DNA from: Candidatus Limnocylindrus sp.
Lineage (GTDB): Bacteria > Chloroflexota > Limnocylindria > Limnocylindrales > Limnocylindraceae
Length of the DNA stretch: 64,000 bases
Direction: 5' to 3' (one strand)
NCBI GenBank assembly: GCA_040397215.1
Contig: JBBAWK010000001.1
The notes below the pieces were generated by a model that was given only the letters and a program-made list of their open reading frames with translations, made no database searches and was not told the DNA's origin. Positions 1,591-53,920 of the stretch are shown one piece after another. The position numbers were made by a program, and so were the translations under genes. Every line of letters starts with the position of its first letter. Positions within the stretch are counted from its first letter, which is position 1.

Positions 1591-1594
<4 letters not shown>
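323..1594 (+). CDS. Winged-helix DNA-binding domain protein of the YcaQ/AlkZ-like family (putative crosslink-repair DNA glycosylase)
   Basis: 423 aa. N-terminal ARRFLAERHMLLPP...LALVERLGSLQFDPVDLAGRSHEIV is typical of the DUF1006/HTH_42 YcaQ family. ATG lies 2 nt after the upstream stop. Confidence 0.55.
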
Positions 1595-2304
<710 letters not shown>

Positions 2305-2317
2305 CGCCGTACTCCTC

Positions 2318-3340
2318 TCAGTGTCCCGCTGCGGCGCCGCGGCCGAGGTAGGCCTCGATCACCTTCGGGTTGGTGCGGATCTCTTTCGGTAGGCCCTCGG
2401 CAATCTTCTCGCCATGGTCGAGCACGGTGATGTGATCCGAGATCCCCATGACCACGCGCATGTCGTGCTCAATAAGCAGCACGGTGATGCCAAGCTCGTC
2501 GCGAATGCGGCGGATGAGTGCGGTCATCTCTTCGGTCTCTTTTGGATTCATGCCGGCCGCCGGCTCGTCAAGCAAGAGGAGCTTCGGTCGGCTGGCAATC
2601 GCGCGGGCAATCTCGAGCAGGCGCTGCTTGCCGTACGGCAGGTTGGCCGCCAACTCGTTCTCCATCCCAGCGAGGTCAACGAAGGCAAGGAGCTCACGGG
2701 CGCGCTGCTCAGCGGCTGCCTCCTCCTCGCGCACGCTTCGCGGGATAAAGAGTGCCCCAAGCAGGCTGCTGTGCAGGTGCACGTGCATGCCGATCAGGAT
2801 GTTCTCAAGCGTTGTCAGGCTCTTGTAGAGGCGAATGTTCTGGAAGGTGCGCGCAAGGCCAGCCACCACCATGTCGTTCGGTCGCGCAGGTCGCGTGACG
2901 CCGATGCGCTTGATGAGGCGGTTGTACCAGGCCGGGCGAACGATGTTCAGGAGCAGTGCGCCGACAAAGCCGAGGAGCGCTGCGGCAACAGAGGCAACCC
3001 CCTCGACGAGGCCTGTGTCGCCACCTACAACAAGGAGGGAGTAGATCGCGAGAGCAATAAATGGAATGGTTGGCAGGATGAGGAGGATCGGCTCTCGGCC
3101 AGACCCGGTCGGGGGCGAGATGAGCGGCTTCCCGTCGAGTTCGATGGTGCCCGATGTTGGCGCGTAGATGCCCGCAATGACGTTAAAGAATGTGGTCTTC
3201 CCCGCCCCGTTTGGCCCAATAATCGCGCTAATGGAGCCGCGGGGAATCTCAAAGTCAACGCCATTCACGGCAACAAGGCCACCAAACTTTCGCGTAACGC
3301 CGCGAGCCTTCAGCATTGGCCCACCCTTCGCTGTGTTCAC
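2318..3340 (-). CDS. livG: Branched-chain amino acid ABC transporter ATP-binding protein LivG carrying a ~83-aa hydrophobic insertion
   Basis: 340 aa. GPNGAGKTT, LPYGKQRLLEIARA, LLLDEP, IEHDM, NPKVIEAYLG. An extra segment sits between Walker A and the Q-loop (see findings). Confidence 0.85.
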   Translation of the reverse strand: MNTAKGGPMLKARGVTRKFGGLVAVNGVDFEIPRGSISAIIGPNGAGKTTFFNVIAGIYAPTSGTIELDGKPLISPPTGSGREPILLILPTIPFIALAIYSLLVVGGDTGLVEGVASVAAALLGFVGALLLNIVRPAWYNRLIKRIGVTRPARPNDMVVAGLARTFQNIRLYKSLTTLENILIGMHVHLHSSLLGALFIPRSVREEEAAAEQRARELLAFVDLAGMENELAANLPYGKQRLLEIARAIASRPKLLLLDEPAAGMNPKETEEMTALIRRIRDELGITVLLIEHDMRVVMGISDHITVLDHGEKIAEGLPKEIRTNPKVIEAYLGRGAAAGH

Positions 3341-4455
3341 TTGAGGCCTCGCTTCCCGATCTTCAGTGGGGCGAATTCGCGCATGCGTCGACGAACGGGG
3401 AAGATTCCCTGTGGGCGCTTGAGCATCATCAGCACCAGCACAATGCCGTAGAGCACGTACTGGAAATCCAAGAAGTTAATCTGGTTGAGCACTGGAATAT
3501 TGAAGTTTTCTACGAGGACATTTAGCTGCTTCAGCAGGATGCTCTGGAACAAATAGATGATGAAGGCACCTGTTGCTACGCCAATCGTGTTACCCATACC
3601 ACCAAGAACGACGGCGGCGAGGACACTAATGGAGACGGAAAACCGGAATTGTTCTGGTGTCACGATCGTGAGCTTCGCGACGCTTACGACGCCAATGATT
3701 CCAGCGATCGAAGCGCCAACGGCGAACGCCTGGAGCTTGGCGATCACGATATTCACTCCGGAAGACTCTGCGGCGAGCTCGTCTTCGCGAATAGCGTCCC
3801 AGGTGCGGCCAAGGCGCGAATCCTGAAGACGGAAGATCATGACCATGATCAACGTAAAGAGTGCAATGACCAGTCCGTACATTGGCCACGGGTTAATGAG
3901 GGTGAACTGTAAGAGCCCTGGAATGTTTGGCTTGTCGATGCCGCCGATCCCGTTCACACCATTCGTGAATCTGTCGGAGTTCTGCAAGGTGATCGGCACA
4001 ATCTCTCCAAAGCCGAGGGTCACAATCGCGAGGTAGTCACCACGAAGTCGTAACGTTGGAGCACCGAGCAATATTCCGAAGATCGCCCCAACCATGCCAC
4101 CGGCGAGCAACATTGGCCAGAACGGCAGATGAATGCCAGTGAATGGCGCCGCGACGAAGGCGTAGGTGTAGCCGCCGAGCGCAAAGAACGCTGCGTAGCC
4201 GAGATCGAGAAGTCCCGCGAATCCAATGACCACGTTGAGACCCATCGCCAACATGGCGTAAATTGCTGCGTTCGTGAAAGCATTCACCCACGCATTTGTT
4301 GATTGAATGCCGTCAAATGGCGGCACGCGCGTGATGAGCGGCAGGGCGATGCTTAACAGCAAGACCCCAACAAGGATGCCGAGGCTGCGGTGAAGGCGGA
4401 AATACGCACGTACCGGCGCGAATTGAGCGTTCAGCGCAGCGATTACCCCGCTCAT
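3337..4455 (-). CDS. livM: Branched-chain amino acid ABC transporter permease LivM
   Basis: 372 aa polytopic membrane protein, LivM-like (GLNVVIGFAGLLDLGYAAFFALGGY). Its stop overlaps the livG start. Confidence 0.85.
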   Translation of the reverse strand: MSGVIAALNAQFAPVRAYFRLHRSLGILVGVLLLSIALPLITRVPPFDGIQSTNAWVNAFTNAAIYAMLAMGLNVVIGFAGLLDLGYAAFFALGGYTYAFVAAPFTGIHLPFWPMLLAGGMVGAIFGILLGAPTLRLRGDYLAIVTLGFGEIVPITLQNSDRFTNGVNGIGGIDKPNIPGLLQFTLINPWPMYGLVIALFTLIMVMIFRLQDSRLGRTWDAIREDELAAESSGVNIVIAKLQAFAVGASIAGIIGVVSVAKLTIVTPEQFRFSVSISVLAAVVLGGMGNTIGVATGAFIIYLFQSILLKQLNVLVENFNIPVLNQINFLDFQYVLYGIVLVLMMLKRPQGIFPVRRRMREFAPLKIGKRGLK

Positions 4456-5513
4456 GCGCGGTCGCCCGTGTGCGAGCCGAGAAGGCCCGTTGGGCGGAAG
4501 ACCAAAAAGATGACGAGGAGCGAGAAGACGATTGCGCCGCCCCAGCGGCCATAGCCGAATGCCGCAGCACCAACCTCAACGAAGGCAATTAAGAATCCTC
4601 CGAGCGCCGCGCCTGCCGTGTTACCGATTCCGCCAAGAACGGCGGCGGTAAACGCCTTTAGGCCGGAGGCAAACCCGAGGCTAGAGTTGGTGTTGCCGTA
4701 GTAAAAGCCGTGGATCACCCCTGCTGCCCCAGCGAGACCAGAGCCGATCAGGAAGGTGATCATGATCGTGCGATTAATGTCAACGCCCATTAGCGATGAC
4801 GCGTCACGATCCATTGAGGTTGTGCGCATGGCGCGACCTGTGCGGGTTCGCGAGACGAAGATTTGCAACCCAGCCATAAGGATGATTGAGGTGGCGATCA
4901 CAAACAAATTGAGGAGTGGTATTCGAGCCCCCCCGACTTGGAATGCCCATTCAATCGGAACCAGCTGGGGCACTGTGATGATGGTTGAGCCAAAGAAGAA
5001 CTGGATAATATTTTGCAGGATAAAACTCACGCCAATTGCAGTAATCAACGGGGCAAGCTTGGGGGCACGTCGGAGCGGACGGTAGGCAAGTCGCTCAATC
5101 AGCGCGCCGACCAGCGCCATGCACCCAATTGTCAACGGAAACACCACAATCACGTTCAGTAGCAGGAGCGGTATGTCGCTAATGCCACCTGTGTTTCCGA
5201 GCAGACTTTTGCTAATAAACATGGCGACGAATGAGCCAACCATAAACACGTCACCGTGGGCGAAGTTGATGAGCTCAATAATGCCGTACACCATGGTGTA
5301 CCCGAGGGCCACAAGGGCATAAATGGCACCAAGGGTCATGGCGTTCACAAATTGGTCGATACCGAGAACCCCGAAGGCAAGGCTGAGGAAGATGAGGATG
5401 GTTGCCGGTAGACGGAGACTGCCTACGAGGCGGCTCGGGCTCGGGCTTGTCACGCTGGCTGCGGCCATGTTCCCTCCCCCTGCATTGGCAACCCGGATGG
5501 GCTGCAGACTCAT
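4452..5513 (-). CDS. livH: Branched-chain amino acid ABC transporter permease LivH
   Basis: 353 aa, LivH-like (TLGAIYALVALGYTMVYGIIELINFAHGD). Overlaps the livM start by 4 nt. Confidence 0.85.
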   Translation of the reverse strand: MSLQPIRVANAGGGNMAAASVTSPSPSRLVGSLRLPATILIFLSLAFGVLGIDQFVNAMTLGAIYALVALGYTMVYGIIELINFAHGDVFMVGSFVAMFISKSLLGNTGGISDIPLLLLNVIVVFPLTIGCMALVGALIERLAYRPLRRAPKLAPLITAIGVSFILQNIIQFFFGSTIITVPQLVPIEWAFQVGGARIPLLNLFVIATSIILMAGLQIFVSRTRTGRAMRTTSMDRDASSLMGVDINRTIMITFLIGSGLAGAAGVIHGFYYGNTNSSLGFASGLKAFTAAVLGGIGNTAGAALGGFLIAFVEVGAAAFGYGRWGGAIVFSLLVIFLVFRPTGLLGSHTGDRA

Positions 5514-5656
5514 TAGTTAGATAGTGCCGCCCAGCACGGGATTCGGCAAGAGGGTGCCAGCCGCCTCGCAATTTAAAGACCCCCACCACCCTTTCGGGTG
5601 ATGGGGGCCCTTACGGTGCCTAAAACAGGCGCGCGGGTCTCCCCACGCTCCTAGTT

Positions 5657-6853
5657 CTACTTGCCGTAGTCGATCTGCTTGACGAACTTCCAAGCACCAC
5701 CGTCAACCTTGTACAGGGAGATGATGTGCTGTGAAGTGTCTCCAACGTCGTCGAATGAAACTGGTCCGAGGACCGTCTCATACTTGGTACCTGGGTGAAT
5801 GATGGCTGAACGGACCGTCTCGCGGGTCACAGTGCCACCGGCGACGGCAGCCTTGATCCCCTCGATGATGATCTGTGCGCAGGCGTAGCCGGCGAAGGCA
5901 TAGCCCTCAGCATCGTGGCTGTACTCAGCCTTGAACTTCACGTTGAAGGCATCCTTGCCAGGAATGTTCTCGATTGCAGCCTGTGATGCGTAGCTGTTCT
6001 CAGCGTTCATACCAGCGGTTGCAATGTAGGAACCTTCACCGGCGCCGTCGTAGATGCCATCGCCGCCGTAGAACGGCAGCGCGCCAAGGCCCGCCTGGGC
6101 AAGGGCGTTACGGAAGAGTGGAGCGCCGTCTGACGTCACACCACCGTAGAAGATCGAGTCAGCGCCGGCTGCCTTTGCAGCCGCAGCTACAGCGGAGAAG
6201 TCGGTCTCGGTTGCGGCCTGGCCCTGATGGCCTACCACGGTGCCGCCGCCAGCGACGAACTCGTCATGGAAGGCATTCGCAATCCCCACGCCATAGGCGT
6301 CGGTGGAGTCAACGATGTAGACCTTCTTCGCGCCGTTCTCAAGAGCGTACACAGCAACGGCTGGACCCTGAAGGTCGTCCGTCGTCGCGAGGCGAATGTA
6401 GTTCACTGGTCGGCCGCCGCGGAGGGCTGCACCGGCATCACCCTTCGTGAGGTCTGGGTTCGTGTTTGATGGCGAGCACTGAAGAAGTCCGGCCTCTGAC
6501 GAGACAGGAATCTGTGCCAGAGCTACGGACGAGTTGAACGGGCCAACCACGGCGACAACTGTTTCGTCACCGACGAAGGTCAGCATGTCTGCAGCGCCCA
6601 GCTCTGGGTTCTTCTTGCCGTCGACAGCATGGTCAAGAACCTTCGACTTAAGGGTGTAGCCCTCAATCGTCGCTTCCTTGATTGCTAGGAGCGCGCCGTC
6701 ACGGGCCGGGCCCGCTGAGGCAAGTGAAGCACCGTTGAGCGGGAAGCTGATCCCGATCGTCAGCGTCTTGCCTCCGGTTGAACCACCGCATGCAGCTGCG
6801 AGAATCGCAACCGCTGCAAGGGCACTGAGACCCTTCTTGTTAAAGACCTTCAT
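5657..6853 (-). CDS. Branched-chain amino acid ABC transporter substrate-binding lipoprotein (LivJ/K-like)
   Basis: 398 aa. Signal peptide with lipobox LAAVAILAAAC. Type-I periplasmic binding-protein fold. First gene of the liv operon. Confidence 0.85.
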   Translation of the reverse strand: MKVFNKKGLSALAAVAILAAACGGSTGGKTLTIGISFPLNGASLASAGPARDGALLAIKEATIEGYTLKSKVLDHAVDGKKNPELGAADMLTFVGDETVVAVVGPFNSSVALAQIPVSSEAGLLQCSPSNTNPDLTKGDAGAALRGGRPVNYIRLATTDDLQGPAVAVYALENGAKKVYIVDSTDAYGVGIANAFHDEFVAGGGTVVGHQGQAATETDFSAVAAAAKAAGADSIFYGGVTSDGAPLFRNALAQAGLGALPFYGGDGIYDGAGEGSYIATAGMNAENSYASQAAIENIPGKDAFNVKFKAEYSHDAEGYAFAGYACAQIIIEGIKAAVAGGTVTRETVRSAIIHPGTKYETVLGPVSFDDVGDTSQHIISLYKVDGGAWKFVKQIDYGK

Positions 6854-11468: not shown

Positions 11469-12305
11469 TTAGTCTCGGCGCGAGAGCCCCGCGCTCAGGC
11501 CGGCTGCGCCGACGAGTGCCGGGATACCAAACAGTGCGATGGCTATGAGCAGGGTGCTTAGGTCACTTGTCGTGCCTACGCCGCCAACGTTTGCTCGCTC
11601 TTCACCGTTAATCGGCATCGCGTCATACATCGCCTCAGCGAGCTCGAGTGTGCCAACGCTGTTCTGGGCAACGAGGCCCGCCTCAGTTTGGCTAAAGGTC
11701 AGCGCGCCACCGAGGAGGATTGCGCTGAACGTTGTCTCTGCCGCGTTTAACTCCTCGCAGAACATCTTCGTGGAGAGAAGATCGGTCACGGTGAACGTGC
11801 CATCGCTATTGGTGGTCACAGTGCCGCCAAGCTGATTGCATCCGACCGTTGCGCTGAAGCTGCCGTTATCACCAAAATACATCTGGCCAGCGATCACTTC
11901 GTAGCGAACACCACTGAGTGATACCGCGAGGATGGCGAACTGGCGACCGAACGATGGGACGATCTCACCGCCGGTTCGCGCGCAGATCGTGCTGCCGTCT
12001 GCTGTCATCCAGCAGGCGTCACCGCCAACAGGAGGATCCACTGGGAGCCCTGACTGGCACATCACGGGCGCCGCGCCGGTGGGATCAGGTGCACATGGGT
12101 CTTCTGCGACGACCGTCTGGATATAGACGCATTCGGCTGGCGCACCTTCAGGGATTACCGCGACGCCGTCGACGACGTTGACGGGTGGGCACTCCACGCC
12201 TGAAGAGGCGGGTACCGGGGTGACCTCGTCTGCGGCGGCTACGGGGCGCGCGCTTGGTGAGATCAGTAGTCCAAGCATCAGAACGGCGGTGAATACCTGA
12301 GTCAT
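11469..12305 (-). CDS. Secreted META/HslJ-domain protein with C-terminal membrane anchor
   Basis: 278 aa. N-terminal signal peptide. META-like GCNQLGGTV...TKMFCEE. C-terminal hydrophobic segment then an RRD tail. Confidence 0.45.
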   Translation of the reverse strand: MTQVFTAVLMLGLLISPSARPVAAADEVTPVPASSGVECPPVNVVDGVAVIPEGAPAECVYIQTVVAEDPCAPDPTGAAPVMCQSGLPVDPPVGGDACWMTADGSTICARTGGEIVPSFGRQFAILAVSLSGVRYEVIAGQMYFGDNGSFSATVGCNQLGGTVTTNSDGTFTVTDLLSTKMFCEELNAAETTFSAILLGGALTFSQTEAGLVAQNSVGTLELAEAMYDAMPINGEERANVGGVGTTSDLSTLLIAIALFGIPALVGAAGLSAGLSRRD

Positions 12306-12380: not shown

Positions 12381-12905
12381 CTAGAGCTCTCCGCGGAGCG
12401 CCTTGGCGAGCTGCTCGCCGTGGTCGAGGGGGTGCTTGGAGTAGATCCGCAGCAGGTCGTCAAGCGTGAAGCGCCCGCGCTCGCTGTGCTCCGCATAGCG
12501 GGTCAAGTCTGCCTCCGTGAGGTGCTGGAGCACGTTGAACGTGCCCGCCCGCACCGCCGAGAAGACCGCGAGTGACGTCTCAATGGGATCGGTCTCATAG
12601 CCGAGCGCTGGGCTCGCCGCCCAGGCGCCCTCGTCGTATCCCTGAATAAGGGAGCCAGCTGGCTCTGCAACCAGGCGTCGCAGTCGCGCGTATGACTGCG
12701 CCTCGCTGTCGGCCAAGTGGTGGATCACCTGACGCGGCGACCAACCCTCTGGGTGCTTGGCGTCGAGCTTCAGGTGATCGAGTGCGGCAACCTGCTCTTC
12801 GAACGCTTTCGTTGCCGCCTGATAGGCCGCGACGCGTTCGGCGAAACTCACTTGCCAGTGACCCAATCGATCATGTTCGACATCAGTGGCGCAAAGCCGT
12901 TCCAT
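12381..12905 (-). CDS. DinB-family (DinB_2) metal-dependent protein
   Basis: Four-helix DinB-like sequence with an HHLADSE metal motif. Start set to the internal ATG at 12905 (M17); the upstream ATG at 12953 would overlap the preceding gene by 106 nt. Confidence 0.55.
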   Translation of the reverse strand: MERLCATDVEHDRLGHWQVSFAERVAAYQAATKAFEEQVAALDHLKLDAKHPEGWSPRQVIHHLADSEAQSYARLRRLVAEPAGSLIQGYDEGAWAASPALGYETDPIETSLAVFSAVRAGTFNVLQHLTEADLTRYAEHSERGRFTLDDLLRIYSKHPLDHGEQLAKALRGEL

Positions 12906-13597
12906 TGCACGAATGGCTCTGGGCACCAGTGCGGTCCGATGTCCGAGGTCCACACCAGTGATCGGCCCTTGCCAACCTGTGTCGTAGCGATGAGTGGATC
13001 GCCACCGACTGAGGCAACAAGTGTTGCGCCAGGCTTCAGCACCACCTTGTTGTAGCCAAGCAGTGCTGGCATGCCAGCAGGAACACCGGCGAGCACTGGA
13101 TGGTTTGCATCAACGATCACGGGCTGCGCACCCTCTGGTGCCTCAACGCGATCATCGTGGGTGAGGCAGGTCACTGGAAGCACGCGCTCGACGGCGCTGC
13201 CAGCGAAGCGCGCCTTCGCCTCAAAGCCTTGGAAGCTGAGATAGCCGCCGGCCATGATCAACGCGCCGCCGTTCTCCACCCACTCGGCGAGGAGCTTCAA
13301 GCGATTCGGCGTTGACTTCCCGTGCAGCCACGTTTCAATTGGGAGAAGGAACGAGTTAGTGCCGATGTCGGAGAGCACGATCACGTCGTACTTGCTCAGC
13401 TCTGCTGCGGTGTGCGAGAACTTTGCTGGCACATCGTGCGCGTACATCTGCTCAACCTCGTGGCCCTTGGAGCGAAGGGCGCCGTTGTACCAATCGGCAC
13501 CGGAGTGGAAGGTGACGCTGGTGAAGGAGTCAAACCCCTTGTAGTGCGTTGCCTCAGATACCCACGACTCCCCAACGAGCAGAACGCGCTTTCCCAT
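12848..13597 (-). CDS. Class-I glutamine amidotransferase-like protein (DUF1355/ThuA-like)
   Basis: 249 aa: MGKRVLLVGESW...VIVLSD...GGALIMAGGY. Assignment from overall architecture only. Confidence 0.4.
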   Translation of the reverse strand: MGKRVLLVGESWVSEATHYKGFDSFTSVTFHSGADWYNGALRSKGHEVEQMYAHDVPAKFSHTAAELSKYDVIVLSDIGTNSFLLPIETWLHGKSTPNRLKLLAEWVENGGALIMAGGYLSFQGFEAKARFAGSAVERVLPVTCLTHDDRVEAPEGAQPVIVDANHPVLAGVPAGMPALLGYNKVVLKPGATLVASVGGDPLIATTQVGKGRSLVWTSDIGPHWCPEPFVQWNGFAPLMSNMIDWVTGK

Positions 13598-13615
13598 GAG
13601 CTCCCCCTTCTGGCG

Positions 13616-14659
13616 CTAGCGCGCCTCCTCAAATAGCCGACGCGGATTATCCGTCATCATTGCAATTCCCTGCTTGAGCGACACGCCATGGCGCACCAGC
13701 CGTGGCAGGAAGAACTCCACGATGTGCCCGTAGCCTGGCCCACCGTTCGCGCGCAGCAGGATCTTCATGAAAATGTCCTGCGACATCAGCACGCGATCGC
13801 CGTACCCATCCGTAACGAGCCGTGCGATGTTGCGCGCATCATCTTCGTCGCTGGTGCAGGCGGCCTGCTGGTCGGCGTAGAAGACTTGCATGCCGATCAT
13901 GTCGTACTGCAGATAGATGCCGCGCTTCAGCAGGCGCGTTTGGTACTCGTAGTCATCACCGCTCGGGTTGGAGTGACAGAGCACCACGCTCTGCATCGGC
14001 ACCCCCTGCGCCGCAACGAAGTCGAGCACCTCGTCGCCGAGGCGATACCAGCCCGGCATGTGGATCTGGATCGGCACACCCGTCTCGCGCTGCGCCAGAC
14101 AGGCACCGGCGAGCGAGTTGCGCTCGCGATTGGTGAACGGCTGGCCAACGAAGATCTCGCCGATGAAGCCGGCGCGGATGTTGGTTCCCTGTGCGCCGAC
14201 GGTGAGGTCACGCACGATGCGATCGGCGATCTCACGCACGCTGCCGTCGAGGTGTTCTGGGCCATGAACGGGGTCGAGGAAGATGCCGCTCCCCATCACC
14301 ACGTTCAACCCCGACTCGCGGCTGATGCGTGCCAGCCCCTCGGGGTCGCGACCGTTCCCCTTATCGGCGCAGGCCTCAAGGATCGTGCGGCCACCCTGGG
14401 CGGCGAAGCGCTTCACCTCAACGATTGCCGACTCGATATCGTCGAGCACACAGTTGTCCTTGTTGAGGAATGGGTCGTGGCGCAGCTCCCAGACGTTGGT
14501 GATGGAGACCTTCTCGTCGACAAGCTCCATGGAGCGAGCAGAATCGTCGTAGGGCGGATGCCACCACGGCGTGACGATGTTGAAGAGGTGCTCGTGCGTG
14601 AGGGTGAGCCCCATCTCGGCGCTCTCGATCTCACCGGTGACCGTTTGAATCTTGACCAT
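13616..14659 (-). CDS. Phosphotriesterase-family (PTER/PHP, amidohydrolase superfamily) protein, paralog 1
   Basis: HxH metal motif LTLTHEHL, GFIGEIF, IQIHMP, LCHSN, MSQD, ANGGPGYGH. Start at internal ATG MVKIQT (14659), 4 nt after the paralog-2 stop. Confidence 0.8.
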   Translation of the reverse strand: MVKIQTVTGEIESAEMGLTLTHEHLFNIVTPWWHPPYDDSARSMELVDEKVSITNVWELRHDPFLNKDNCVLDDIESAIVEVKRFAAQGGRTILEACADKGNGRDPEGLARISRESGLNVVMGSGIFLDPVHGPEHLDGSVREIADRIVRDLTVGAQGTNIRAGFIGEIFVGQPFTNRERNSLAGACLAQRETGVPIQIHMPGWYRLGDEVLDFVAAQGVPMQSVVLCHSNPSGDDYEYQTRLLKRGIYLQYDMIGMQVFYADQQAACTSDEDDARNIARLVTDGYGDRVLMSQDIFMKILLRANGGPGYGHIVEFFLPRLVRHGVSLKQGIAMMTDNPRRLFEEAR

Positions 14660-14663
14660 GTGG

Positions 14664-15704
14664 TTAGCTTGCCTCTTCAAAGAGCCGACGTGGGCTCGCG
14701 GTCATCATGCTAATTCCCTGCTCGAGCGGCACGCCGTGCCGGGCGAGTCGCGGCAGGAAGAACTCGACCAGATGGCCGTAGCCTGGACCGCCGTACGAGC
14801 GCAGCAGCGTCTTCAAGCCGATGTCTTGCGACATCAGCACCTTCTGGCCGAACCCATCACGCACCAGGCGGGCAATGTTGCGCGCATCGTCTTCGTCGCT
14901 GCTGCACGACGCCTGCTGATCCGCGTAAAAGACCTGCATGCCAATCATGTCGTACTGCAGATAGGCGCCGCGCTTGAGCAGACGCGTCTGATACTCATGG
15001 TCGTCGCCACTCGGGTTGGAGTGGCAGAGCACGATGCTCTCCATCGGCACGCCGTGTGCCGCGCAGAGGTCGAGCACCTCGTCGCCTAAGCGGAACCAGG
15101 CGGGCATGTGGATCTGCATCGGTAGGTGCGTCTCGCGCTGTGCAATGCACGAACCAGCAAGTGACTTGCGCTCTCGTGCCGTGAACTCACTACCCACACC
15201 AATCTCACCAATGATTCCCGACTTCACCTTGGTGCCAGGTGCACCCTCCGTAATGTCGCGAATGAGATCGTTGGCGATGTCGCGTTCGCTCTTGGCGTCG
15301 TTCGCTTCGGATTGTGACCCGTCAAGGTAGTAACCCGTTCCCATGATGATGTTGAGTCCGGTGCGTGTGCTGATCGTGGCAAGCCCCTCAGGATTACGAC
15401 CATCGTTATAGCCACTCGTCTCGATGATCGTCTTGCCGCCCTGGTCTGCAAACCGCTGCACCTCTTTGATGGCAAGTTCAACGTCTTGAACAATGAGGTT
15501 GTCTTTATTGATGAACGGGTCGTGCTTGAGCTCCCAGATGTTGCTGATGGAGACCTTCTCGTCGACAAGCTCGCGCGATCGCGCTGAATCGTCGAATGGC
15601 GGGTGCCACCAGGAGGTCACGTCGCCGAGTAGGTGCTCGTGCGTGAGGGTGAGGCCCATGTCGGCGCTATCTATCTCGCCGGTGACGGTTCGGATCTTGA
15701 CCAT
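14664..15704 (-). CDS. Phosphotriesterase-family protein, paralog 2
   Basis: 346 aa with the same motif set, very similar to paralog 3 (high identity judged by eye, not computed). Begins 5 nt after the paralog-3 stop. Confidence 0.8.
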   Translation of the reverse strand: MVKIRTVTGEIDSADMGLTLTHEHLLGDVTSWWHPPFDDSARSRELVDEKVSISNIWELKHDPFINKDNLIVQDVELAIKEVQRFADQGGKTIIETSGYNDGRNPEGLATISTRTGLNIIMGTGYYLDGSQSEANDAKSERDIANDLIRDITEGAPGTKVKSGIIGEIGVGSEFTARERKSLAGSCIAQRETHLPMQIHMPAWFRLGDEVLDLCAAHGVPMESIVLCHSNPSGDDHEYQTRLLKRGAYLQYDMIGMQVFYADQQASCSSDEDDARNIARLVRDGFGQKVLMSQDIGLKTLLRSYGGPGYGHLVEFFLPRLARHGVPLEQGISMMTASPRRLFEEAS

Positions 15705-15709
15705 GGCGG

Positions 15710-16750
15710 CTAGCTCGCCGATTCGAAGAGTTGACGCGGATTCGCGGTCATCATCGCGATTCCCTGCTCCAGTGGCACGCCGTGTCGGGCGAGTCGCGGC
15801 AGGAAGAACTCAACCATGTGCCCGTAGCCTGGGCCGCCGTAGGAGCGCAGGAGGCTCTTGAGGAAGATGTCTTGCGACATCAGCACCTTCTGACCGAAGC
15901 CGTCACGCACTAGGCGTGCAATGTTGCGCGCGTCATCTTCGTCACTCGTGCACGAGGCCTGTTGGTCGGCGTAGAAGACCTGCATGCCGATCATGTCGTA
16001 CTGCAGATAGGCACCACGCTTCAGCAGACGCGTCTGGTATTCGTGATCGTCACCACTCGGATTGGAGTGGCAGAGCACGATGCTCTCCATTGGCACGCCG
16101 TGGGCTGCGCAGAAATCGAGCACCTCATCGCCGTAGCGGAACCAGGCGGGCATGTGCACCTGCATTGGGATATGCGTCTCGCGCTGGGCGATGCAGGCAC
16201 CGGCGAGTGACTTGCGCTCACGCGCGGTGAACTCACTGCCGACGCCAATCTCACCAATGATCCCCGACTTGATCCCTGTGCCGCGTGCCCCTTCGGTAAT
16301 GTCGCGAATCAGCTCGTTAGCAATGTCATGCTCACTCTTAGCGTCGTTCGCTTCTGGCTGCGATCCGTCGAGGTAGTAGCCCGTCCCCATGATGATGTTG
16401 AGGCCGGTTCGTTTGCTGATCGTGGCAAGCCCTTCGGGGCTACGGCCGTTGCCGTCGGCGCTCGTCTCGATGATCGTTTTTCCGCCCTGATCAACGAATC
16501 GCTGCACCTCCTTGATGGCCAATTCAATGTCTTGCATGGAGCAGTTGTCTTTATTGATGAACGGGTCGTGCTTCAGCTCCCAGATGTTGGTGATGGAAAC
16601 CTTCTCGTCGACCAGTTCGCGCGATCGCGCTGAATCGTCGAGTGGCGGATGCCACCAGGAGAGGACGTCGTTCAGAAGATGTTCGTGAGTCAGCGTCAGA
16701 CCGAGGTCTGCGGAGCTGATGGGGCCAAGAACGCTCTCTACCTGCTTCAT
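15710..16750 (-). CDS. Phosphotriesterase-family protein, paralog 3
   Basis: 346 aa: LTLTHEHLLNDVLSWWHPP..., GIIGEIG, MQVHMP, LCHSN, ANGGPGYGH. Confidence 0.8.
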   Translation of the reverse strand: MKQVESVLGPISSADLGLTLTHEHLLNDVLSWWHPPLDDSARSRELVDEKVSITNIWELKHDPFINKDNCSMQDIELAIKEVQRFVDQGGKTIIETSADGNGRSPEGLATISKRTGLNIIMGTGYYLDGSQPEANDAKSEHDIANELIRDITEGARGTGIKSGIIGEIGVGSEFTARERKSLAGACIAQRETHIPMQVHMPAWFRYGDEVLDFCAAHGVPMESIVLCHSNPSGDDHEYQTRLLKRGAYLQYDMIGMQVFYADQQASCTSDEDDARNIARLVRDGFGQKVLMSQDIFLKSLLRSYGGPGYGHMVEFFLPRLARHGVPLEQGIAMMTANPRQLFESAS

Positions 16751-16759
16751 GTGCGCAGA

Positions 16760-17989
16760 CTAGCGTGCGTTGTGGTCTCCCGCGGGGAGGCGGCGCACGG
16801 CGACGATCCCGAGCGCGAGAAGCAGCACCGACCCAAGAAAGATGGGGGTGAGTGCAAGCGCATCACCCGGCCGTGGCGTGCCAATGAGCGCGGCGGCTGA
16901 TGAGATCAGTGGCCCAACGACGGCACCGGCGTAGAGGGGGAAGAGCGAGAGGCTCAGCGCGGCGGTGCGACGGCGCTCGGTGACGGAGTTGGCCAGCCAG
17001 GTGAAGACCATCGCCTGCAGCAGCGCCGATGCCGCAGCAAGGAGCGTATTCGAGAGGGCAAGGCCGAACGCCGTTGAGACAACGATCATTGTGCCAGCGG
17101 CAACCGCCGCGGCGGCGAAGCCGAGCGCCATCACTCGCGGGGCGCCGATGCGCGGCACCAGGCGTGTAGCGAGGAGCGGCGCAACGAGGGCGCCCCCCAG
17201 CGCCGAGAGTCCTGTCAGTAGGCCAACGGCGCCCGCCACGCCAGGGGCGGCGAGCGGTTCGGCTATTCCCGTAATCGAGGGGCCAATCACCACCTCGGCA
17301 ATCCGTAGCGGGAAGACAGGGCGGAGCATGCGCTCCCCGGCGATAGCCAGGCCAAGCACCAGGTATCCCGCACGAATCTTGCGGTCGGCGAAGACCTCGC
17401 GAAGGCCACGGCGGGCCACCTCGAGCACGCCTCCCGTCGGCGGGTGGTGCGGTCGTACGTCAGGGATTGCCACGATGTTGGCCACGATGAGTGCAGCATT
17501 GAGCAGCGCCGCGACCATGATCGGTGCCGCAAGCGAGAGGCCCAGGCCGTCAATCATTGCGCCGGCGAGGAGTGGCCCCAGTGCGAAGCCCATCGGTGCC
17601 GCGGCGCTAAAGAGAGCGATCGACCTGGTGCGTGCGTGCTCTGGCGAAACCTCACGAATCGTCGCCAGCATGACGCCGGTGTTGCCGAGCCAGAAGCCGA
17701 GGGCGAGCGTTGCGGCGATCAACTGCCACGCCTCTTGCGCGAGGGCGAAGGCGATAAGTGCGATCAGCGCAATCAGTCCACTGCGCACGATGACGAGTCG
17801 ACGCGATCGCAACTCGGCGATGGCCAGCCAGATCGGCACCTGCGGTGCACCAACGATAAAGATACCCGCTGTCGCTGCGCCCGACACTGTCGCGATATCA
17901 CGCAGTGGTACCCCAGCCCCTTCAAGTGCGAGCGGAAGGTAGGCATAGATCATGGCGACGCCGAAGATCTCAGCGAATTGCACCAGCAC
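16760..17989 (-). CDS. MFS transporter
   Basis: 409 aa, about 12 predicted TM helices. 9 nt upstream of PTE paralog 3 on the same strand. Confidence 0.8.
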   Translation of the reverse strand: MLVQFAEIFGVAMIYAYLPLALEGAGVPLRDIATVSGAATAGIFIVGAPQVPIWLAIAELRSRRLVIVRSGLIALIALIAFALAQEAWQLIAATLALGFWLGNTGVMLATIREVSPEHARTRSIALFSAAAPMGFALGPLLAGAMIDGLGLSLAAPIMVAALLNAALIVANIVAIPDVRPHHPPTGGVLEVARRGLREVFADRKIRAGYLVLGLAIAGERMLRPVFPLRIAEVVIGPSITGIAEPLAAPGVAGAVGLLTGLSALGGALVAPLLATRLVPRIGAPRVMALGFAAAAVAAGTMIVVSTAFGLALSNTLLAAASALLQAMVFTWLANSVTERRRTAALSLSLFPLYAGAVVGPLISSAAALIGTPRPGDALALTPIFLGSVLLLALGIVAVRRLPAGDHNAR

Positions 17990-18033
17990 GTAGATGGTGA
18001 CGATCCGCTGCCACGGGATCGTGCTGGTTCGGA

Positions 18034-19605
18034 TCAGAGATCACCAGCCTTAGCACGGCTACGAACGTCGGCTGCGCGTACCAGGATCTCTTTGCGGACA
18101 CCCGCTGGCCGCGCAGACCAGGAGCGAACCTGTGTTGCCATGCGTGGATTCTTCGCGAACCGTGCCGAGTGACGATCAATGAACTCCCAGTACATGGTGG
18201 TAAACGGACAGGCCGTTTCGCCCACCGATTCGGTTGGGTTGTAGAAACACGATTTGCAGTCGTCGCCCATACGCGAGATGTATGCGCCGCCACAGATGTA
18301 CGGCTTACTCGTGATGCGACCCAGATCCGCAAACTGACTCATGGCCACGACGTTTGGCGTAACGACCCACGGCAGCGCATCGACAAATGCCTCCAGGAAC
18401 CAAGAGTCAACCTGCTGCGGTTGCACGCCGAAGAGGAGTGCAAAGTTGCCGAGCACCATGAGGCGCTCGATGTGGTGGACGTGTCCCGTTCGCTGCAGCG
18501 TTTTGACGATGCGCGACATGCAGGCCATCTTCGTCTCTCCCGACCAGTAGAGCTCAGGCAGCTCCTCATGGGCGTTCAGGCCGTTGTCGGTCTGCCACTC
18601 TCGCCAATACTCGCGATATGCGTGGCGCATGAATTCGCGCCAACCGAGGATCTGGCGGATGAACCCTTCGATGCTCGAGAGGGGGATCTCTTTCTTCCGA
18701 TCGGCATGCGTTTGTATTGCACGCTCGCAGACTTCGGCAGGAGTGATCAGGCCAAGGTTGAGCGCTGGTGACAGGAGCGAGTGAAAGAGATGCTCATGCT
18801 CTTTCGACATAGCATCTTCGTATGGGCCAAAGTTGGCCAGCCGATCGTCACAAAATGCGTCGAGTGCAGCGAGTGCCTCACGCCGGGTTGTCGGCCAGAT
18901 CAGTGTGGTTGACTCGCCAAAGAGCGTTGAGGACTCCTTAAGTACTTCATCAATCACCGACTGTACGAGTGGCGTGACTGCTGCATACGGCGGTGTCGGC
19001 ACGTCGGTGCCAGGGACGAGGCGCTTCCGATTCTCCTTGTCGAGGTTCCATGTGCCGCCAATCGGTTCGCTCTTCCCCGCGCTCTCCTCCATCAGCCAGC
19101 CACGCGCACTGCGCACACGTCGATACCAGTACTCCATGCGGAGCTCTTTTCGGCCCGACTTGAACGCCTCCCATTCAGCCACGGTGGTGAGCCAGAGCTG
19201 ATTTTCGACGACCTCCACGGGCGTACCGCTCGCAGCGGACCATGCCTGAATCGCCTCGAGGTCCTGAGGCTGCGCAGGGTCCATCAGGGTGACGCCGGAC
19301 GGCCGATACCGCTCCTGGGCGGCGGCGAGTGCCTCGCCCAGGGTGGGAGCCTTGATGACCTCGGTTGGAGCCCCGCGCCCCTGAAGCTCTGCCGCAAACC
19401 CTCGTAGCGCCGCGACCTGCAGCACCACGGCCTGCACGTGTCGTGCCTCGTGCCGCACGCCCGTGATCTCTAAGACGAGGATTGGATCGGCGAACTTGGC
19501 GCTGCCATCAAGATACGCGCGAAGTGGGCCAACCTGGTCAGTGAGCTGATCTCCTAGAACTACGAGGTGGTTCACGCTACGACCGCCTGCGACGACAGGC
19601 GTCAC
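18034..19605 (-). CDS. FeS-BCP / PhrB-type (6-4) photolyase-cryptochrome with a [4Fe-4S] cluster
   Basis: 523 aa cryptochrome/photolyase fold. The four-Cys cluster signature KPYICGG...[10 protein letters not shown]...ETACP is characteristic of FeS-BCP (CryB/PhrB). Confidence 0.8.
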
Positions 19606-19744
19606 TGCAATACTTCACCTCGTCCCAAACACGCTCCCAGCGCTTGCGCCACTGGAACGGTCGGCCGCACACCACGCAAATCTTTTCTGGGCGTTCGCTC
19701 GGCGGTCGATGCGGCTGCCGTGGTTCACGTCGTGCGCCGCCCAC
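19577..19744 (-). CDS. DUF2256 small Cys4 zinc-ribbon protein
   Basis: C-terminus [34 protein letters not shown] matches DUF2256. GTG at 19744 (2 nt after the CPD photolyase stop) is the only plausible start. 55 aa. Overlaps the next gene's start by 29 nt. Confidence 0.6.
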
Positions 19745-19746
19745 AG

Positions 19747-21228
19747 CTATTGGCCACTCTCTGGCTTCAGCGCCGCGCTGTACGCCGCAAGCGTTCGTTG
19801 ACGCGCCTCGGCGTGATCGACGATCGGCCCTGGATACTGTTCGCCGAGGGTGATCCCGGCCTCTGCAAGCGCCTTTGGATGCGCCCACGGCGCATGGATC
19901 GCGGGCGCTTGCAGAGCTGCAAGCTCTGGCACCCAGCGGCGCACATATTCACCATCGGGATCAAAGTTTCCCGCCTGCGTCACCGGATTGAAGATGCGGA
20001 AGTACGGTTGCGCATCAGTGCCACTCCCCGCACACCACTGCCAGCCACCATTGTTGGCGGCAATATCACCGTCGACAAGATGTCGCAAGAAGTGCGCCTC
20101 CCCCTCACGCCAATCAATCAGCAGGTCTTTTGTTAGGAATGATGCGGTGATCATGCGCGCGCGGTTGTGCATGAAGCCGGTCGCTGCGAGTTGGCGCATC
20201 CCTGCATCAACAACGGGGTAGCCGGTCTTGCCGCTTTTCCACGCCTCCAGTAAGCGCTGATCGCTGCTCCACTTGATTGCGTCGTAGCTTGGACGCCACG
20301 CGCTGCTCGCGGCATGCGGCGCGTGCCAAAGCACCTGTGTATAGAAGTCACGCCAGGCGATCTGGCTCACCCAGACTCGCTCACCAGATCGTTCACCCTC
20401 TTGCACTGGCGGTAGTGGAAGTTGTCGCACAACAAGTTCACGCGCGGAGAGGAGCCCAATATGCAGCGCCGCCGAGAGGCGGCTAGTTCCAGAGTTGTCG
20501 GCCAACGTGTTGCGCCGGTCTGCATACTTGTCAATTGATTTGCGCCACGCATCGGCGTATTTGCGCGCAGCGCGTTCACCTGGCACAGGGAGTTGATCAA
20601 TCTGCGCGGTTGGCACCGCATGCGCATCAAGGAGCGTCCGATCAACGGTGGAAGTTGGAGTTGGTGTTGGTAGTGGTGGAAGCTTCTTCGGCGCTGGGAG
20701 TGGCGCGCTCGCGTCAACCTGCTCGAGCCATCGGCGGAAATACGGCGTGTAGACGCCGTATGGTGTGCCGCCACCGGTCAGCAACTCCTCTGGCTCCACC
20801 ACAACGAGGCCACGCTTCGCATGCAGTTTCACGCCGAGTGGTGTGAGCAGATCCGCAACGGCGTGATCGCGCTCTCGCGCGAACGGAGTGTGGTCGCGCG
20901 TCATGAAGAGGTCAATTTCTCCAGTGCCGCCTGCGGCACGCAACTCGCTAACCAACAGTGGGAGTGCGGTAGTGGCTGGCCCCTGCAGTTCAATGAGGTC
21001 CGAGCCGATGGCGCGCAGGCTGGCGGCGAGTTCTGTGACGCTCTCGCGCAGGAACCAGGTGCGGTTGGCGCTCGACAGCTTGCCAGTAATGAGGCCGGGT
21101 TCCCAGATGAAGATCGGCAAGAGGGGTGCGCCCCGCTCCTTGGCTGCTGCCACCGCCGCCACCAGTGCGGGGTGATCGGCAAGGCGAAGGTCTCGGCGGA
21201 ACCAAAGGATCACTGGGGGGTGTGGCAT
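19747..21228 (-). CDS. phr: Deoxyribodipyrimidine (CPD) photolyase, class I / CRY-DASH-like
   Basis: [13 protein letters not shown]...[15 protein letters not shown]...WREGE...[24 protein letters not shown]. Start set to the internal [18 protein letters not shown] (21228); the ORF is open up to 21327. Confidence 0.85.
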
Positions 21229-21347
21229 CGTCGGTAGATCATCGCACCTTACCCGCGCCGCGGGGCTCCCTCTCGGGGCGGTGACGGGGTACGATCCCCC
21301 CGCCGTGCGTTGCCCGGCAGCATCCAAGCAACCGAGAGCGGGGGGCT

Positions 21348-35637: not shown

Positions 35638-36573
35638 CTAGGCGCGGAACGCCTTTCGGGTCATCTCAATGAATCGCTCGCGATCAACGCGATAGACCAC
35701 CCGGCAGTTCGGCTCGCGCTTCGTGTTGCCCAGGTGATCAACGATGGTTTGTCCGCGCTCATGTCCAAGGCCGAGCGACACCTCAACACGAAGGTGCGCT
35801 TCGCTGGTCGCGATGTCGGGCTCAAGCGCCACCGCCATGGCGATTGGATCTGGCCAGTCAAAGCCCTTCAGCTTTGATGACTCTTCGCAGAACTTTCGCA
35901 AGGCGCGCTGAATGTCGATGCTGTACTGGCCGAGCGGCCCGAGCGCGCGCAGCTCTGCAGCAAGATCATCCTCAATGACCGCGTCGGCCACAGAGACATC
36001 CCAGCCGACCATCTCCACCTTCATGCCGGACTCTAAGACGATGTGCACCGCCTCTGGGTCGACCCACCAGTTGAATTCGGCGAGCGGCGTGATGTTGCCA
36101 GGGAGCACGCCCGTGCCGCCCATGATCACGCAGCGCTTCACCCAGCTAGCGAACTTTGGTTCAATGCGAATGGCGATGGCAAGGTTGGTGAGCGGGCCGA
36201 GCGCGACGAGTTCTAGCTCGCCTGGCTCTTTGCGGAATGCGTCGATCATGGCGTGTACCGCGTCGTTACTTGTTGCTTTGCGGCCCTTCAGCGGTAGTCC
36301 GATGTCACCCATGCCGTCGGCGCCGTGCACATGCTGCGCAGTGGCAAACGCCCGCACGAGCGGCATCTCAGCACCGGCATGTAAGGGAATGCTCTTGCCG
36401 CACAGTTCAACGGTGTAGAGGGCGTTTTGCACGCCGAGCTCCACCGGAACATTGCCGATCACAACCGACATGCCAACGACTTCGGTGTTCGGATGCTTTA
36501 GTGCCATGACGATCGCCACGACGTCATCTGAGGCAGTATCGGTATCGATCCACATGCGGCGGGTTGGGCTCAT
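35638..36573 (-). CDS. Nucleoside hydrolase (IUNH family)
   Basis: N-terminal aspartate cluster WIDTDTASDDVVAI (DxDxxxDD). Start at internal ATG 36573, which avoids overlap with the upstream gene. Confidence 0.8.
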   Translation of the reverse strand: MSPTRRMWIDTDTASDDVVAIVMALKHPNTEVVGMSVVIGNVPVELGVQNALYTVELCGKSIPLHAGAEMPLVRAFATAQHVHGADGMGDIGLPLKGRKATSNDAVHAMIDAFRKEPGELELVALGPLTNLAIAIRIEPKFASWVKRCVIMGGTGVLPGNITPLAEFNWWVDPEAVHIVLESGMKVEMVGWDVSVADAVIEDDLAAELRALGPLGQYSIDIQRALRKFCEESSKLKGFDWPDPIAMAVALEPDIATSEAHLRVEVSLGLGHERGQTIVDHLGNTKREPNCRVVYRVDRERFIEMTRKAFRA

Positions 36574-36602
36574 GCGCGCATCGTATCTGCTGCTCGAACG
36601 GA

Positions 36603-37598
36603 TTAGTTGCGGCGTTCTGAAAGCGCGGCGGGGTCGGCCTGCCACGGTCGAATCCCCTCGGCGAGGAGCAGATTCTCGCGATCGAGATGTGCGGCGAGCA
36701 GGGTGAGGCGTGCCAGCGCATCAGGGGCTTCGAGGAGCGCTTGGCGCTGCTCAAGGCTCAGCTGCACAACACCGCCAACCACGTGCGAGAGGCCGACCGG
36801 ATCGTCGCTCCCTGAGAGTCGATCGATGGCCGTAGCAAGTAGTTCGCCATCAGGGTCACCCTCGTCGTCGGGAGACTCGTCATCGCCAGTGTTGTATTCG
36901 GTGATCTTGGTCGGCCCAACTGCAGTGTTTGACGCCACAAGGAGACGCTCGATCTCAGAGACCACCTCTTGGCTGAGTGCCGCACCCTGCTCCTCTTCGA
37001 GCGCCTCGGTAATCGCTTCGGGGGTTACCTCATCGTCCTCGATGAATTCGCCCTCCTCCTCTTGATCGTCGTCGTCATGGTCGTGATCGTGCTCCCCCTC
37101 ATCGACGCCGCGCAGCAGCTCAAGATAGTCAATGAACAAATCAGAGACGCGCTCCGCCGTGGCGCGCACGCGCTCAGCCGATTCGCCCACCGCCTCGTCG
37201 AGGAGCTCGATCTCGGCCTGTAGATATGGGGCACTGCGATCAAAGTTCGTAACGCGGAAGCGCTGCGTGCCGAGCCCCACGATGTCCCAGCGCCCATCGA
37301 TGTAGCGCGTCGCCTCGCGAATCTCGGCGAGGGTGCCGATCTCAGAGAGGCCGTCGTTTCCGGAGCGAATCACCCCGAATGGCTGGTTGAGTTCAAGGCA
37401 GCGCTTCACCATCAGGCGATAGCGCGGTTCAAAGATATGCAGCGGTAGGGCAACGCCAGGGAAGAGAACGAGTTGTAGCGGGAAGAGCGGGATCAGTTTC
37501 GGCGCGTCGCCGTTCTGCTCCAGGTCAGTGGCTGCAGGCCGAGGCCTGTCCCGCCGAATCCGCCGTGCGGAAGCTGGAGCCGCAGCCGCAGCCGCCAA
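36603..37598 (-). CDS. LON N-terminal substrate-binding domain protein with poly-acidic insertions
   Basis: LIPLFPLQLVLFPGVALPLHIFEPRYRLMV is a Lon-N domain. Acidic tracts EGEHDHDHDDDDQEEEGEFIEDDE and GDDESPDDEGDPDGE. Start uncertain (74-nt overlap with the iscA-like gene). Confidence 0.65.
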   Translation of the reverse strand: MAAAAAAPASARRIRRDRPRPAATDLEQNGDAPKLIPLFPLQLVLFPGVALPLHIFEPRYRLMVKRCLELNQPFGVIRSGNDGLSEIGTLAEIREATRYIDGRWDIVGLGTQRFRVTNFDRSAPYLQAEIELLDEAVGESAERVRATAERVSDLFIDYLELLRGVDEGEHDHDHDDDDQEEEGEFIEDDEVTPEAITEALEEEQGAALSQEVVSEIERLLVASNTAVGPTKITEYNTGDDESPDDEGDPDGELLATAIDRLSGSDDPVGLSHVVGGVVQLSLEQRQALLEAPDALARLTLLAAHLDRENLLLAEGIRPWQADPAALSERRN

Positions 37599-52109: not shown

Positions 52110-52120
52110 GCGCGCGAGCG

Positions 52121-53844: not shown

Positions 53845-53920
53845 AGAGCCTCCGTGCTGGGTAATTTGCTGTGGGGAGTCTACCGCCATCAGGGTTGGCG
53901 GTTGGCTGGGTTCCCGCCTG

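Follow-up and report, generated by a model that had tools for sequence, protein, structure and literature searches.

The hydrolases that most closely resemble those considered here, Rsp3690 of Rhodobacter sphaeroides (PDB 3k2g) and Pmi1525 of Proteus mirabilis (PDB 3rhg/4qsf), are reported as metal-stimulated esterases, and the titles of two Raushel-laboratory papers cited there indicate that both hydrolyse methylphosphonate esters (PMC5341072). In Salmonella, the cluster rikA(STM3547)-STM3548-STM3549-STM3550 encodes a PfkB ribose kinase, a PF07090 protein, a DMT transporter and a phosphotriesterase-family protein; RikA acts as a ribose kinase, Proteus is among the genera reported to carry a cluster of this type, and the function of the cluster was stated to be unknown by its authors in 2026 (PMC13432705). 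Candidatus Limnocylindrus, a genus of freshwater Chloroflexota with reduced genomes of high coding density (PMC13212565), carries a locus that combines the same kinds of proteins. It was analysed in a 64,000-nt stretch of contig JBBAWK010000001.1 (hereafter the window, with positions counted from its first letter), where the listing of open reading frames (ORFs) and direct reading of the sequence place six minus-strand genes at 12381-17989, in the order MFS, PTE3, PTE2, PTE1, PF07090, DinB. The locus is the Limnocylindrus version of a widespread orphan cluster type, and its earlier interpretation as a catabolic or detoxification operon with tandem phosphotriesterase-family paralogs was right in outline and wrong in several details.

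All three hydrolases match PF02126 along the whole profile (1-298 of 298), with scores of 190.4, 182.1, and 180.6 bits for PTE3, PTE2, and PTE1, respectively (cutoff 22.4). Their metal ligands H22, H24, E167, H199, H228, and D294 are identical, and the H-H-E-H-H-D set is invariant in all 20 aligned family members (one of which, a partial chain of phosphotriesterase homology protein, PHP, is without the HxH columns). The complete binuclear sets announced by the first-pass annotation are therefore present in every copy, but the bridging residue is a glutamate (motif GEIG) and not a carboxylated lysine; in the alignment it takes the position of Glu125 of E. coli PHP, where Rsp3690, Pmi1525, and PTER also have this glutamate. 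The best solved relative is Rsp3690 (3k2g), found by PTE3 at E 5e-98 over residues 5-344 and by PTE1 at E 6e-95. Identity is 45-47% to Rsp3690, 37-40% to Pmi1525, 28-29% to PTER (9efa), and 28-31% to E. coli PHP (1bf6), and structures of phosphotriesterases (PTE) and phosphotriesterase-like lactonases (PLL) match at E 1e-18 to 1e-27, aligning only from query residue 73-84. Scores fall below the equivalog cutoffs of NCBIfam for organophosphorus hydrolase (OPH; 61-72 bits against 500) and, by far, for PHP, as well as below that of the phospho-furanose lactonase model NF045706 (45-56 bits against 630). A phylogeny against the PLL, PTER, and PHP groups, as proposed earlier for this locus, was built by neighbour joining and puts the paralogs in the Rsp3690/Pmi1525 clade: Rsp3690 pairs with a Rhizobium hydrolase from a hydrolase-PF07090 operon, the window paralogs fall inside a clade bounded by Pmi1525, and PTER branches outside. 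Judged from their sequences, the hydrolases belong to the Rsp3690/Pmi1525 esterase clade and are not true phosphotriesterases, PLL lactonases, or PTER proteins. An exact-protein look-up of PTE3 found no record, and literature searches on phosphotriesterases in Limnocylindr* and on tandem PTE paralogs found nothing relevant.

The protein encoded after the hydrolases matches PF07090 at 331.7 bits (cutoff 27; profile 1-246 of 247) and is a homolog of STM3548 of Salmonella (2gk3; E 4e-61). Among eight aligned PF07090 proteins from four phyla, STM3548 included, there is no conserved cysteine nucleophile, and the nucleophile-elbow position reads GGY(L/M/Y)SF. A class I glutamine amidotransferase with a Cys-His-Glu triad was ruled out on this basis, and the label "amidotransferase-like", used in the earlier description, reflects the fold only. 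The proteins nevertheless hold many polar invariants (E10, H18, K20, D23, H54, D77, D148, D149, R150, E152, E155, H166, D219, and H223), and the PF07090 protein is probably an enzyme. A search of the literature for PF07090, GATase1_like, and DUF1355 returned the Salmonella paper alone.

The two proteins travel together across wide evolutionary distances. In a genome scan with one genome per species (74 loci, the best being metagenome-assembled genome (MAG) contigs, 95-99% identical, of Candidatus Limnocylindrus or Aquidulcis), PF07090 follows the hydrolase in every locus that reaches past it, and the same adjacency holds for all metagenome relatives of at least 57% identity. Put in terms of similarity, PF07090 lies directly downstream of the hydrolase in every relative of at least 41% identity whose DNA extends that far; PF02126 homologs at 33-40% identity are without it. 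About 40 loci outside Limnocylindria, mostly from Actinomycetota, contain, in this order, a LacI regulator, a solute-binding protein, an ATPase, and a permease of a ribose-type (CUT2) ABC importer, the hydrolase, PF07090, a nucleoside hydrolase of the inosine-uridine type, and usually a PfkB kinase. The solute-binding protein of these sister operons is closest to structure 5hsg (E 5e-117), whose name gives no hint of a ligand, followed by generic ribose-binding proteins. Operons of Alpha- and Gammaproteobacteria comprise an ABC importer, the hydrolase, PF07090, and PfkB/ribokinase, without a nucleoside hydrolase; on plasmids of Aureimonas, Pantoea, and Rhizobium the ABC importer, hydrolase, and PF07090 genes are followed by varied combinations of PfkB/ribokinase, BtpA/SgcQ, TenA, and an M20 or Zn hydrolase. 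The evolutionarily conserved unit is an Rsp3690-type hydrolase followed by PF07090, always beside a transporter.

Two loci depart from this arrangement. In Monoglobus pectinilyticus (L087, NZ_OY725736.1, 5998-8000), PF07090 stands beside a gene of the metallo-β-lactamase (MBL)-fold "N-acyl homoserine lactonase family", with no PF02126 gene there, and a ribose-type ABC transporter and a ribokinase are retained. The MBL-fold gene is a possible non-homologous replacement of the hydrolase, which suggests lactonase or esterase chemistry for the hydrolytic reaction. On plasmid pN1 of Rhodococcus aetherivorans (L085, 2849-10901), PF07090 occurs without any PF02126 gene and is flanked by genes for a HAD phosphatase, LacI, PfkB, ribose-phosphate pyrophosphokinase, and nicotinate phosphoribosyltransferase, again a ribose-linked context.

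On balance, and with some reserve, we favour the view that the Limnocylindrus locus is a co-transcribed sugar-ester or sugar-lactone module running from MFS through the three hydrolases and PF07090 to DinB. The cell would take up a small ester or lactone of sugar origin, most likely one based on ribose, a hydrolase would open or de-esterify it at its Glu-bridged two-metal centre, and the PF07090 protein would perform the next step, with the product passing into general pentose or nucleoside metabolism. Esters or lactones are the most plausible substrate class, given that Rsp3690 and Pmi1525, the nearest relatives of characterised activity, act as metal-dependent esterases; gene neighbours in other lineages point, as a best guess, to an ester or lactone derived from ribose. 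A more far-reaching proposal can be offered only tentatively and is rather doubtful as a whole: that the Rsp3690-type hydrolase and PF07090 would constitute an obligate two-step pair in an undescribed pathway for ribose-derived esters or lactones, spread over at least three phyla, and that the compound or compounds would be important in lake water, where three hydrolases of diverged specificity have been kept.

Several observations weigh against the module as proposed. To our knowledge, none of the clusters of this type has a demonstrated substrate, and the assays of Rsp3690 and Pmi1525 reportedly used artificial esters only. Co-transcription is argued from spacing and conserved gene order alone, and a scan for promoters and terminators performed at chance level, giving no operon boundaries. 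The MFS protein is closer to DHA1 exporters than to sugar importers, and relatives of DinB/YfiT are better known from thiol-dependent detoxification. Some of the two-copy arrays discussed below come from short-read assemblies. Finally, the nucleoside hydrolase and PfkB genes of the window lie outside the operon, 35 kb away, and their products are 28-38% identical to the actinobacterial ones; since they are unlinked in Limnocylindrus, the connection to ribose is borrowed from other lineages. The operon itself has no PfkB gene, the window's sole PfkB (52909-54000) being 38% identical to its actinobacterial counterpart. This gene belongs to a row of PfkB, PNP/UDP-type phosphorylase, and inosine-uridine nucleoside hydrolase genes at 51099-54000 on the minus strand, and a second nucleoside hydrolase gene lies 15 kb from that row, at 35638-36645, on the same strand.

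Limnocylindria differ from the other lineages at the two ends of the unit, with the MFS gene in place of the ABC importer and DinB in place of the nucleoside hydrolase and kinase. Across the genome and metagenome loci, a DinB gene at this position was found only in Limnocylindria, and the order MFS-hydrolase(s)-PF07090-DinB is kept in all 48 of the Limnocylindria arrays that are fully spanned. The transporter matches MFS_1 at E 9e-23; its named relatives are DHA1 exporters such as MdtG and Tet, with NorA the best solved one (E 6e-5), and all these matches are weak. DinB matches PF12867 (DinB_2) at 59 bits and YfiT (PDB 1rxq) at E 6e-11, and its histidines 44/45, 140, and 144 (motifs HHLADS and HPLDH) align with the metal triad of YfiT. 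These identities are the strength of the alternative that deserves the most attention, though it is unlikely: the locus would serve detoxification or export rather than nutrition, with a DHA1-like MFS pump expelling a toxic ester, lactone, or electrophile and the hydrolases and DinB inactivating it. The best named transporter matches are indeed efflux pumps, DinB resembles the YfiT bacillithiol-transferase model, and the importer, nucleoside hydrolase, and kinase were exchanged in Limnocylindria for exactly these two genes. However, all the transporter matches are weak, the direction of transport cannot be read from sequence, the score of DinB against the YfiT equivalog model (82.7 bits) is below the cutoff of 160 and so does not imply the same function, and the hydrolase-PF07090 core occurs in clearly catabolic, LacI-regulated sugar-importer operons of at least three other phyla.

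The tandem array has a traceable history. PTE3 and PTE2 share 88% protein identity, and PTE3 and PTE1 71%; at the DNA level the values are 82% (PTE3 with PTE2), 70% (PTE3 with PTE1), and 72.5% (PTE2 with PTE1). PTE1 is the most divergent copy, as had been observed, but PTE2 and PTE3 are too far apart to be called near-identical, and the description of the array as near-identical direct repeats of about 1 kb was overstated, the longest identical run measuring 30 nt. The suggestion that the array changes copy number and recombines was borne out. Among 48 contigs that span MFS to PF07090, 22 have one hydrolase copy, 14 have two, and 12 have three, with none having more; two-copy arrays are always PTE3-PTE1, and three-copy arrays are always PTE3-PTE2-PTE1. 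An assembly artefact was considered for the three-copy array and rejected, since the same PTE3-PTE2-PTE1 order recurs in 12 further contigs of the genome and metagenome sets. Two-copy arrays are unlikely to be collapsed three-copy arrays at 82% DNA identity, with less certainty for short-read MAGs.

PTE2 is a chimera, PTE1-like from nt 1 to about nt 75 and PTE3-like in the rest. At 333 sites exactly two of the three copies agree. Over the first 33 of them PTE2 agrees with PTE1 at 28 and with PTE3 at 3, and over the remainder it agrees with PTE3 at 180 and with PTE1 at 59, which sets the breakpoint near nt 75, just past the HxH codons (Fisher p=1e-12). An unequal crossover between PTE1 and PTE3 in a two-copy PTE3-PTE1 array would be expected to yield just such a gene. 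In the tree, the PTE1 orthologs include the second copy of two Limnocylindrus genomes from a distant clade and together form the sister group to all other copies; PTE2 and PTE3 are sisters within the clade of the window. The topology shows that the first duplication is older than the split of the genus, that PTE1 was lost in most of the distant clade, and that PTE2 was added later. An old duplication thus produced PTE3-type and PTE1-type genes before the two Limnocylindrus clades separated; an unequal crossover joining the 5′ 75 nt of PTE1 to the rest of PTE3 then inserted the chimeric PTE2 in the clade of the window; and later losses and gene conversion left the present arrays of one, two, and three copies. 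Identical tracts in relatives point to continuing conversion. In L002 (JBBAWJ010000005.1), PTE3 and PTE2 share an identical tract of 131 nt from nt 703 and are 83.5% identical elsewhere; this tract, the mark of a recent conversion, is absent from the window copies. L003 has a 65-nt identical tract between the same two genes (overall identity in L002 and L003 is about 83-85%), and in L012 and L016 the 5′ ends of PTE2 and PTE1 have 56-74 nt in common.

Strong purifying selection acts on each of the three copies. Median ratios of nonsynonymous to synonymous divergence (dN/dS) among orthologs are 0.036 for PTE1, 0.051 for PTE2, and 0.037 for PTE3, and no internal stop was seen in any of 85 full-length relatives; pseudogenised paralogs in related strains, a prospect raised in the first-pass annotation, were looked for and not found. 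Synonymous divergence (dS) between paralogs is 0.78 for PTE3 and PTE2 and about 1.2 to PTE1. At 68 positions the residue is fixed inside each paralog group and differs between groups. Two changes are confined to PTE2: N27G, three residues from the catalytic H24, and F296G, two from the catalytic D294. Rsp3690, Pmi1525, and all outgroups have N and F at these positions. The PTE1 lineage has fixed L26F, D28I, I164F, G169F, A202G, and L297M. With purifying selection acting on all three and fixed substitutions lying beside catalytic residues, the copies are probably isozymes that differ in substrate range, not extra doses of one enzyme. The opposite case, in which the three hydrolases are functionally equivalent and the array merely raises the level of enzyme, is improbable. 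It would fit the variation from one to three copies among close relatives and the 65-131-nt conversion tracts that homogenise parts of PTE2 and PTE3 in some of them, but the copies are old by their dS values, each has an orthologous clade of its own, and the changes N27G and F296G in PTE2 and G169F, L26F, and D28I in PTE1, all beside catalytic residues, are fixed among strains.

Other chemistries fit the locus less well than an ester or lactone of sugar origin. The earlier suggestion of a lactone, ester, or N-acyl compound holds for its first two members, and nothing was found to favour the third. It is highly improbable that the enzymes are PTER-like amidohydrolases of N-acyl amino acids or N-acetyltaurine, even though PTER (9efa) is the third-best solved relative and has the Glu-bridged ligand set in common with them, and even though some proteobacterial clusters include a gene for an M20 peptidase or a "Zn-dependent hydrolase": identity to PTER is as low as 28-29%, PTER lies outside the clade formed by Rsp3690, Pmi1525, and the Limnocylindrus copies, the locus has no genes of taurine or amino-acid catabolism, and the context in other lineages is one of sugars and ribose. 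There is likewise little likelihood that the locus serves phosphorus scavenging by freeing phosphonates such as methylphosphonate from naturally occurring phosphonate esters in the dissolved organic matter of lakes. The host is an oligotrophic lake plankter, and hydrolysis of methylphosphonate esters by Pmi1525 and Rsp3690 is indicated by the titles mentioned above (PMC5341072), but that activity is described as promiscuous, no phosphonate (C-P lyase) or pho-regulon genes were seen beside any of about 170 loci, and the conserved partners are all sugar-type genes. Organophosphate triesterases or acyl-homoserine-lactone lactonases of the PTE/PLL type are hardly to be expected, because the PF02126 match and the PLL and PTE structural matches (E 1e-18 to 1e-27) that speak for them are set against a Glu bridge in place of carboxylated Lys, OPH equivalog scores of 61-72 bits against 500, a match to Rsp3690 stronger by about 70 orders of magnitude in E-value, and a genomic context of sugar metabolism.

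The gene calls on which these comparisons rest are collected in Table 1.

Table 1. Positions of the six genes, the repeat array, and the adjacent genes within the 64,000-nt window.
Feature	Position	Strand	Remarks
Photolyase gene	19747-21327	minus	upstream, same strand
DUF2256 zinc-ribbon small gene	19577 to ~19700 (long ORF 19577-19888)	minus	Pfam E 3e-20
DPRP (photolyase-related) gene	18034-19605	minus	stop 44 nt before MFS start
MFS transporter	16760-17989	minus	409 aa from GTG 17989
PTE3, first hydrolase copy	15710-16750	minus	346 aa, PF02126
PTE2, middle hydrolase copy	14664-15704	minus	346 aa, PF02126
PTE1, last and most divergent hydrolase copy	13616-14659	minus	347 aa from ATG 14659, PF02126
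Three direct repeats, ~1,046 nt each (the three hydrolase genes)	13614-16750		
PF07090 "GATase1-like" protein (GAT)	12848-13597	minus	249 aa
DinB/YfiT-like metalloprotein	12381-12851	minus	156 aa from GTG 12851
META-domain (HslJ-like) gene	11469-12305	minus	75 nt past DinB, own GGAGG

The description of a six-gene minus-strand unit with spacers of 4-18 nt or overlaps stands, with all ORFs and Pfam families confirmed. Read from the sequence, the spacers are 9 nt (MFS-PTE3), 5 nt (PTE3-PTE2), 4 nt (PTE2-PTE1), and 18 nt (PTE1-GAT, with GGGGGAG inside it), and the start of DinB overlaps the stop codon of GAT by 4 nt (GTGA). The ORFs lie where the first-pass annotation had put them, but two starts differ from it. 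PTE1 most likely begins at ATG 14659 and not at TTG 14680, because the former lies 4 nt past the stop of PTE2 and brings the first residue of the Pfam match into line with that of the other copies. DinB most likely begins at GTG 12851 and not at GTG 12953, because its domain starts just downstream and its relatives align from that residue. The MFS frame remains open for 17 further codons upstream of GTG 17989, up to a stop at 18043-18041; this open stretch (window 17990-18041) overlaps the end of DPRP and contains no ATG, GTG, or TTG. By spacing and conserved order, the six genes probably form a tightly packed, conserved, co-transcribed unit. It had been called an island but is not a compositional one: the GC content of the locus (0.623) equals that of the window (0.625), and synteny at the locus extends across the genus. 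Scans of the whole window for tRNA genes and Rfam families found no element, and hence no riboswitch hinting at a ligand.

The limits of the transcript may lie further out. No terminator-like hairpin was found between the upstream photolyase, DUF2256, and DPRP genes and MFS, and the transcript could be longer than six genes, possibly including these same-strand neighbours. The long ORF of DUF2256 overlaps both the photolyase and the DPRP gene, and the real gene probably has only about 40-45 codons. DPRP is missing from about ten related contigs (L008, L010, L011, L022, L027, L033, L090, L094, L107, and L116); where present it is 53%-98% identical, far more variable than its neighbours, and synteny on the photolyase side is otherwise genus-wide. 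Downstream, a hairpin at 11448-11433, after the META-domain gene, is the only one nearby to be both GC-rich and followed by a T-rich tail. In Limnocylindrus contigs further removed from the window, the META-domain gene seldom turns up in this place (one weak match, in L112). Elsewhere in the window, at 1591-6853 on the minus strand, lies a complete and unrelated ABC importer of the branched-chain-amino-acid type (Peripla_BP_6, two BPD_transp_2 permeases, and two ATPases).

These results overturn no current knowledge; they offer a useful lead and no great surprise. The hydrolase-PF07090 pair occurs widely, and structures have been solved for three of its proteins (3k2g, 3rhg, and 2gk3). The constant core of hydrolase, PF07090, and transporter, together with the usual ribose-type companions, narrows the search for the substrate, and the variants adjacent to the active site provide a ready-made specificity set for biochemistry. 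Three long-lived copies in a genome that sheds genes argue that the substrate class matters ecologically in lakes. If the proposed module is real, finding its substrate would assign a function to PF07090, Rsp3690, Pmi1525, and Salmonella STM3548-3550 together. The locus is also a clear case of a tandem array that grew by unequal crossover and was reshaped by loss and gene conversion.

Compared with the described systems, the Limnocylindrus hydrolases are most like Rsp3690, a non-specific carboxylate esterase in the amidohydrolase superfamily, with which they share a full-length alignment, the H-H-E-H-H-D set, and a long insertion after HxH; they differ in having their own active-site-adjacent substitutions and in their number, the examined relatives of Rsp3690 in other lineages being single-copy genes. 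Pmi1525, a methylphosphonate/carboxylate esterase, has the same ligand set and sits on a more distant branch. E. coli PHP and mammalian PTER share the fold family and the Glu-bridged centre, but they fall outside the clade and occur in other gene contexts. OPH and the PLL lactonases (SsoPox, Dr0930 and others) are members of the same Pfam family with a TIM-barrel metal site in common; unlike the window hydrolases, they have a carboxylated Lys bridge and are without the long loop after HxH. At the level of the cluster, the Salmonella genes provide the same combination of a PF02126 hydrolase, PF07090, and a transporter, but with a DMT transporter, a PfkB ribose kinase, one hydrolase, and another gene order, whereas the Limnocylindrus locus combines an MFS transporter with three hydrolases and a DinB-like gene and has no kinase beside it. 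The actinobacterial and rhizobial operons match Limnocylindrus in placing PF07090 after the hydrolase and in their tight spacing, at 49-59% identity. In these operons, an ABC importer takes the place of MFS, the hydrolase is always single-copy, and where Limnocylindrus has DinB there is a ribokinase, accompanied by a nucleoside hydrolase in the actinobacterial operons or by BtpA/TenA in the rhizobial ones.

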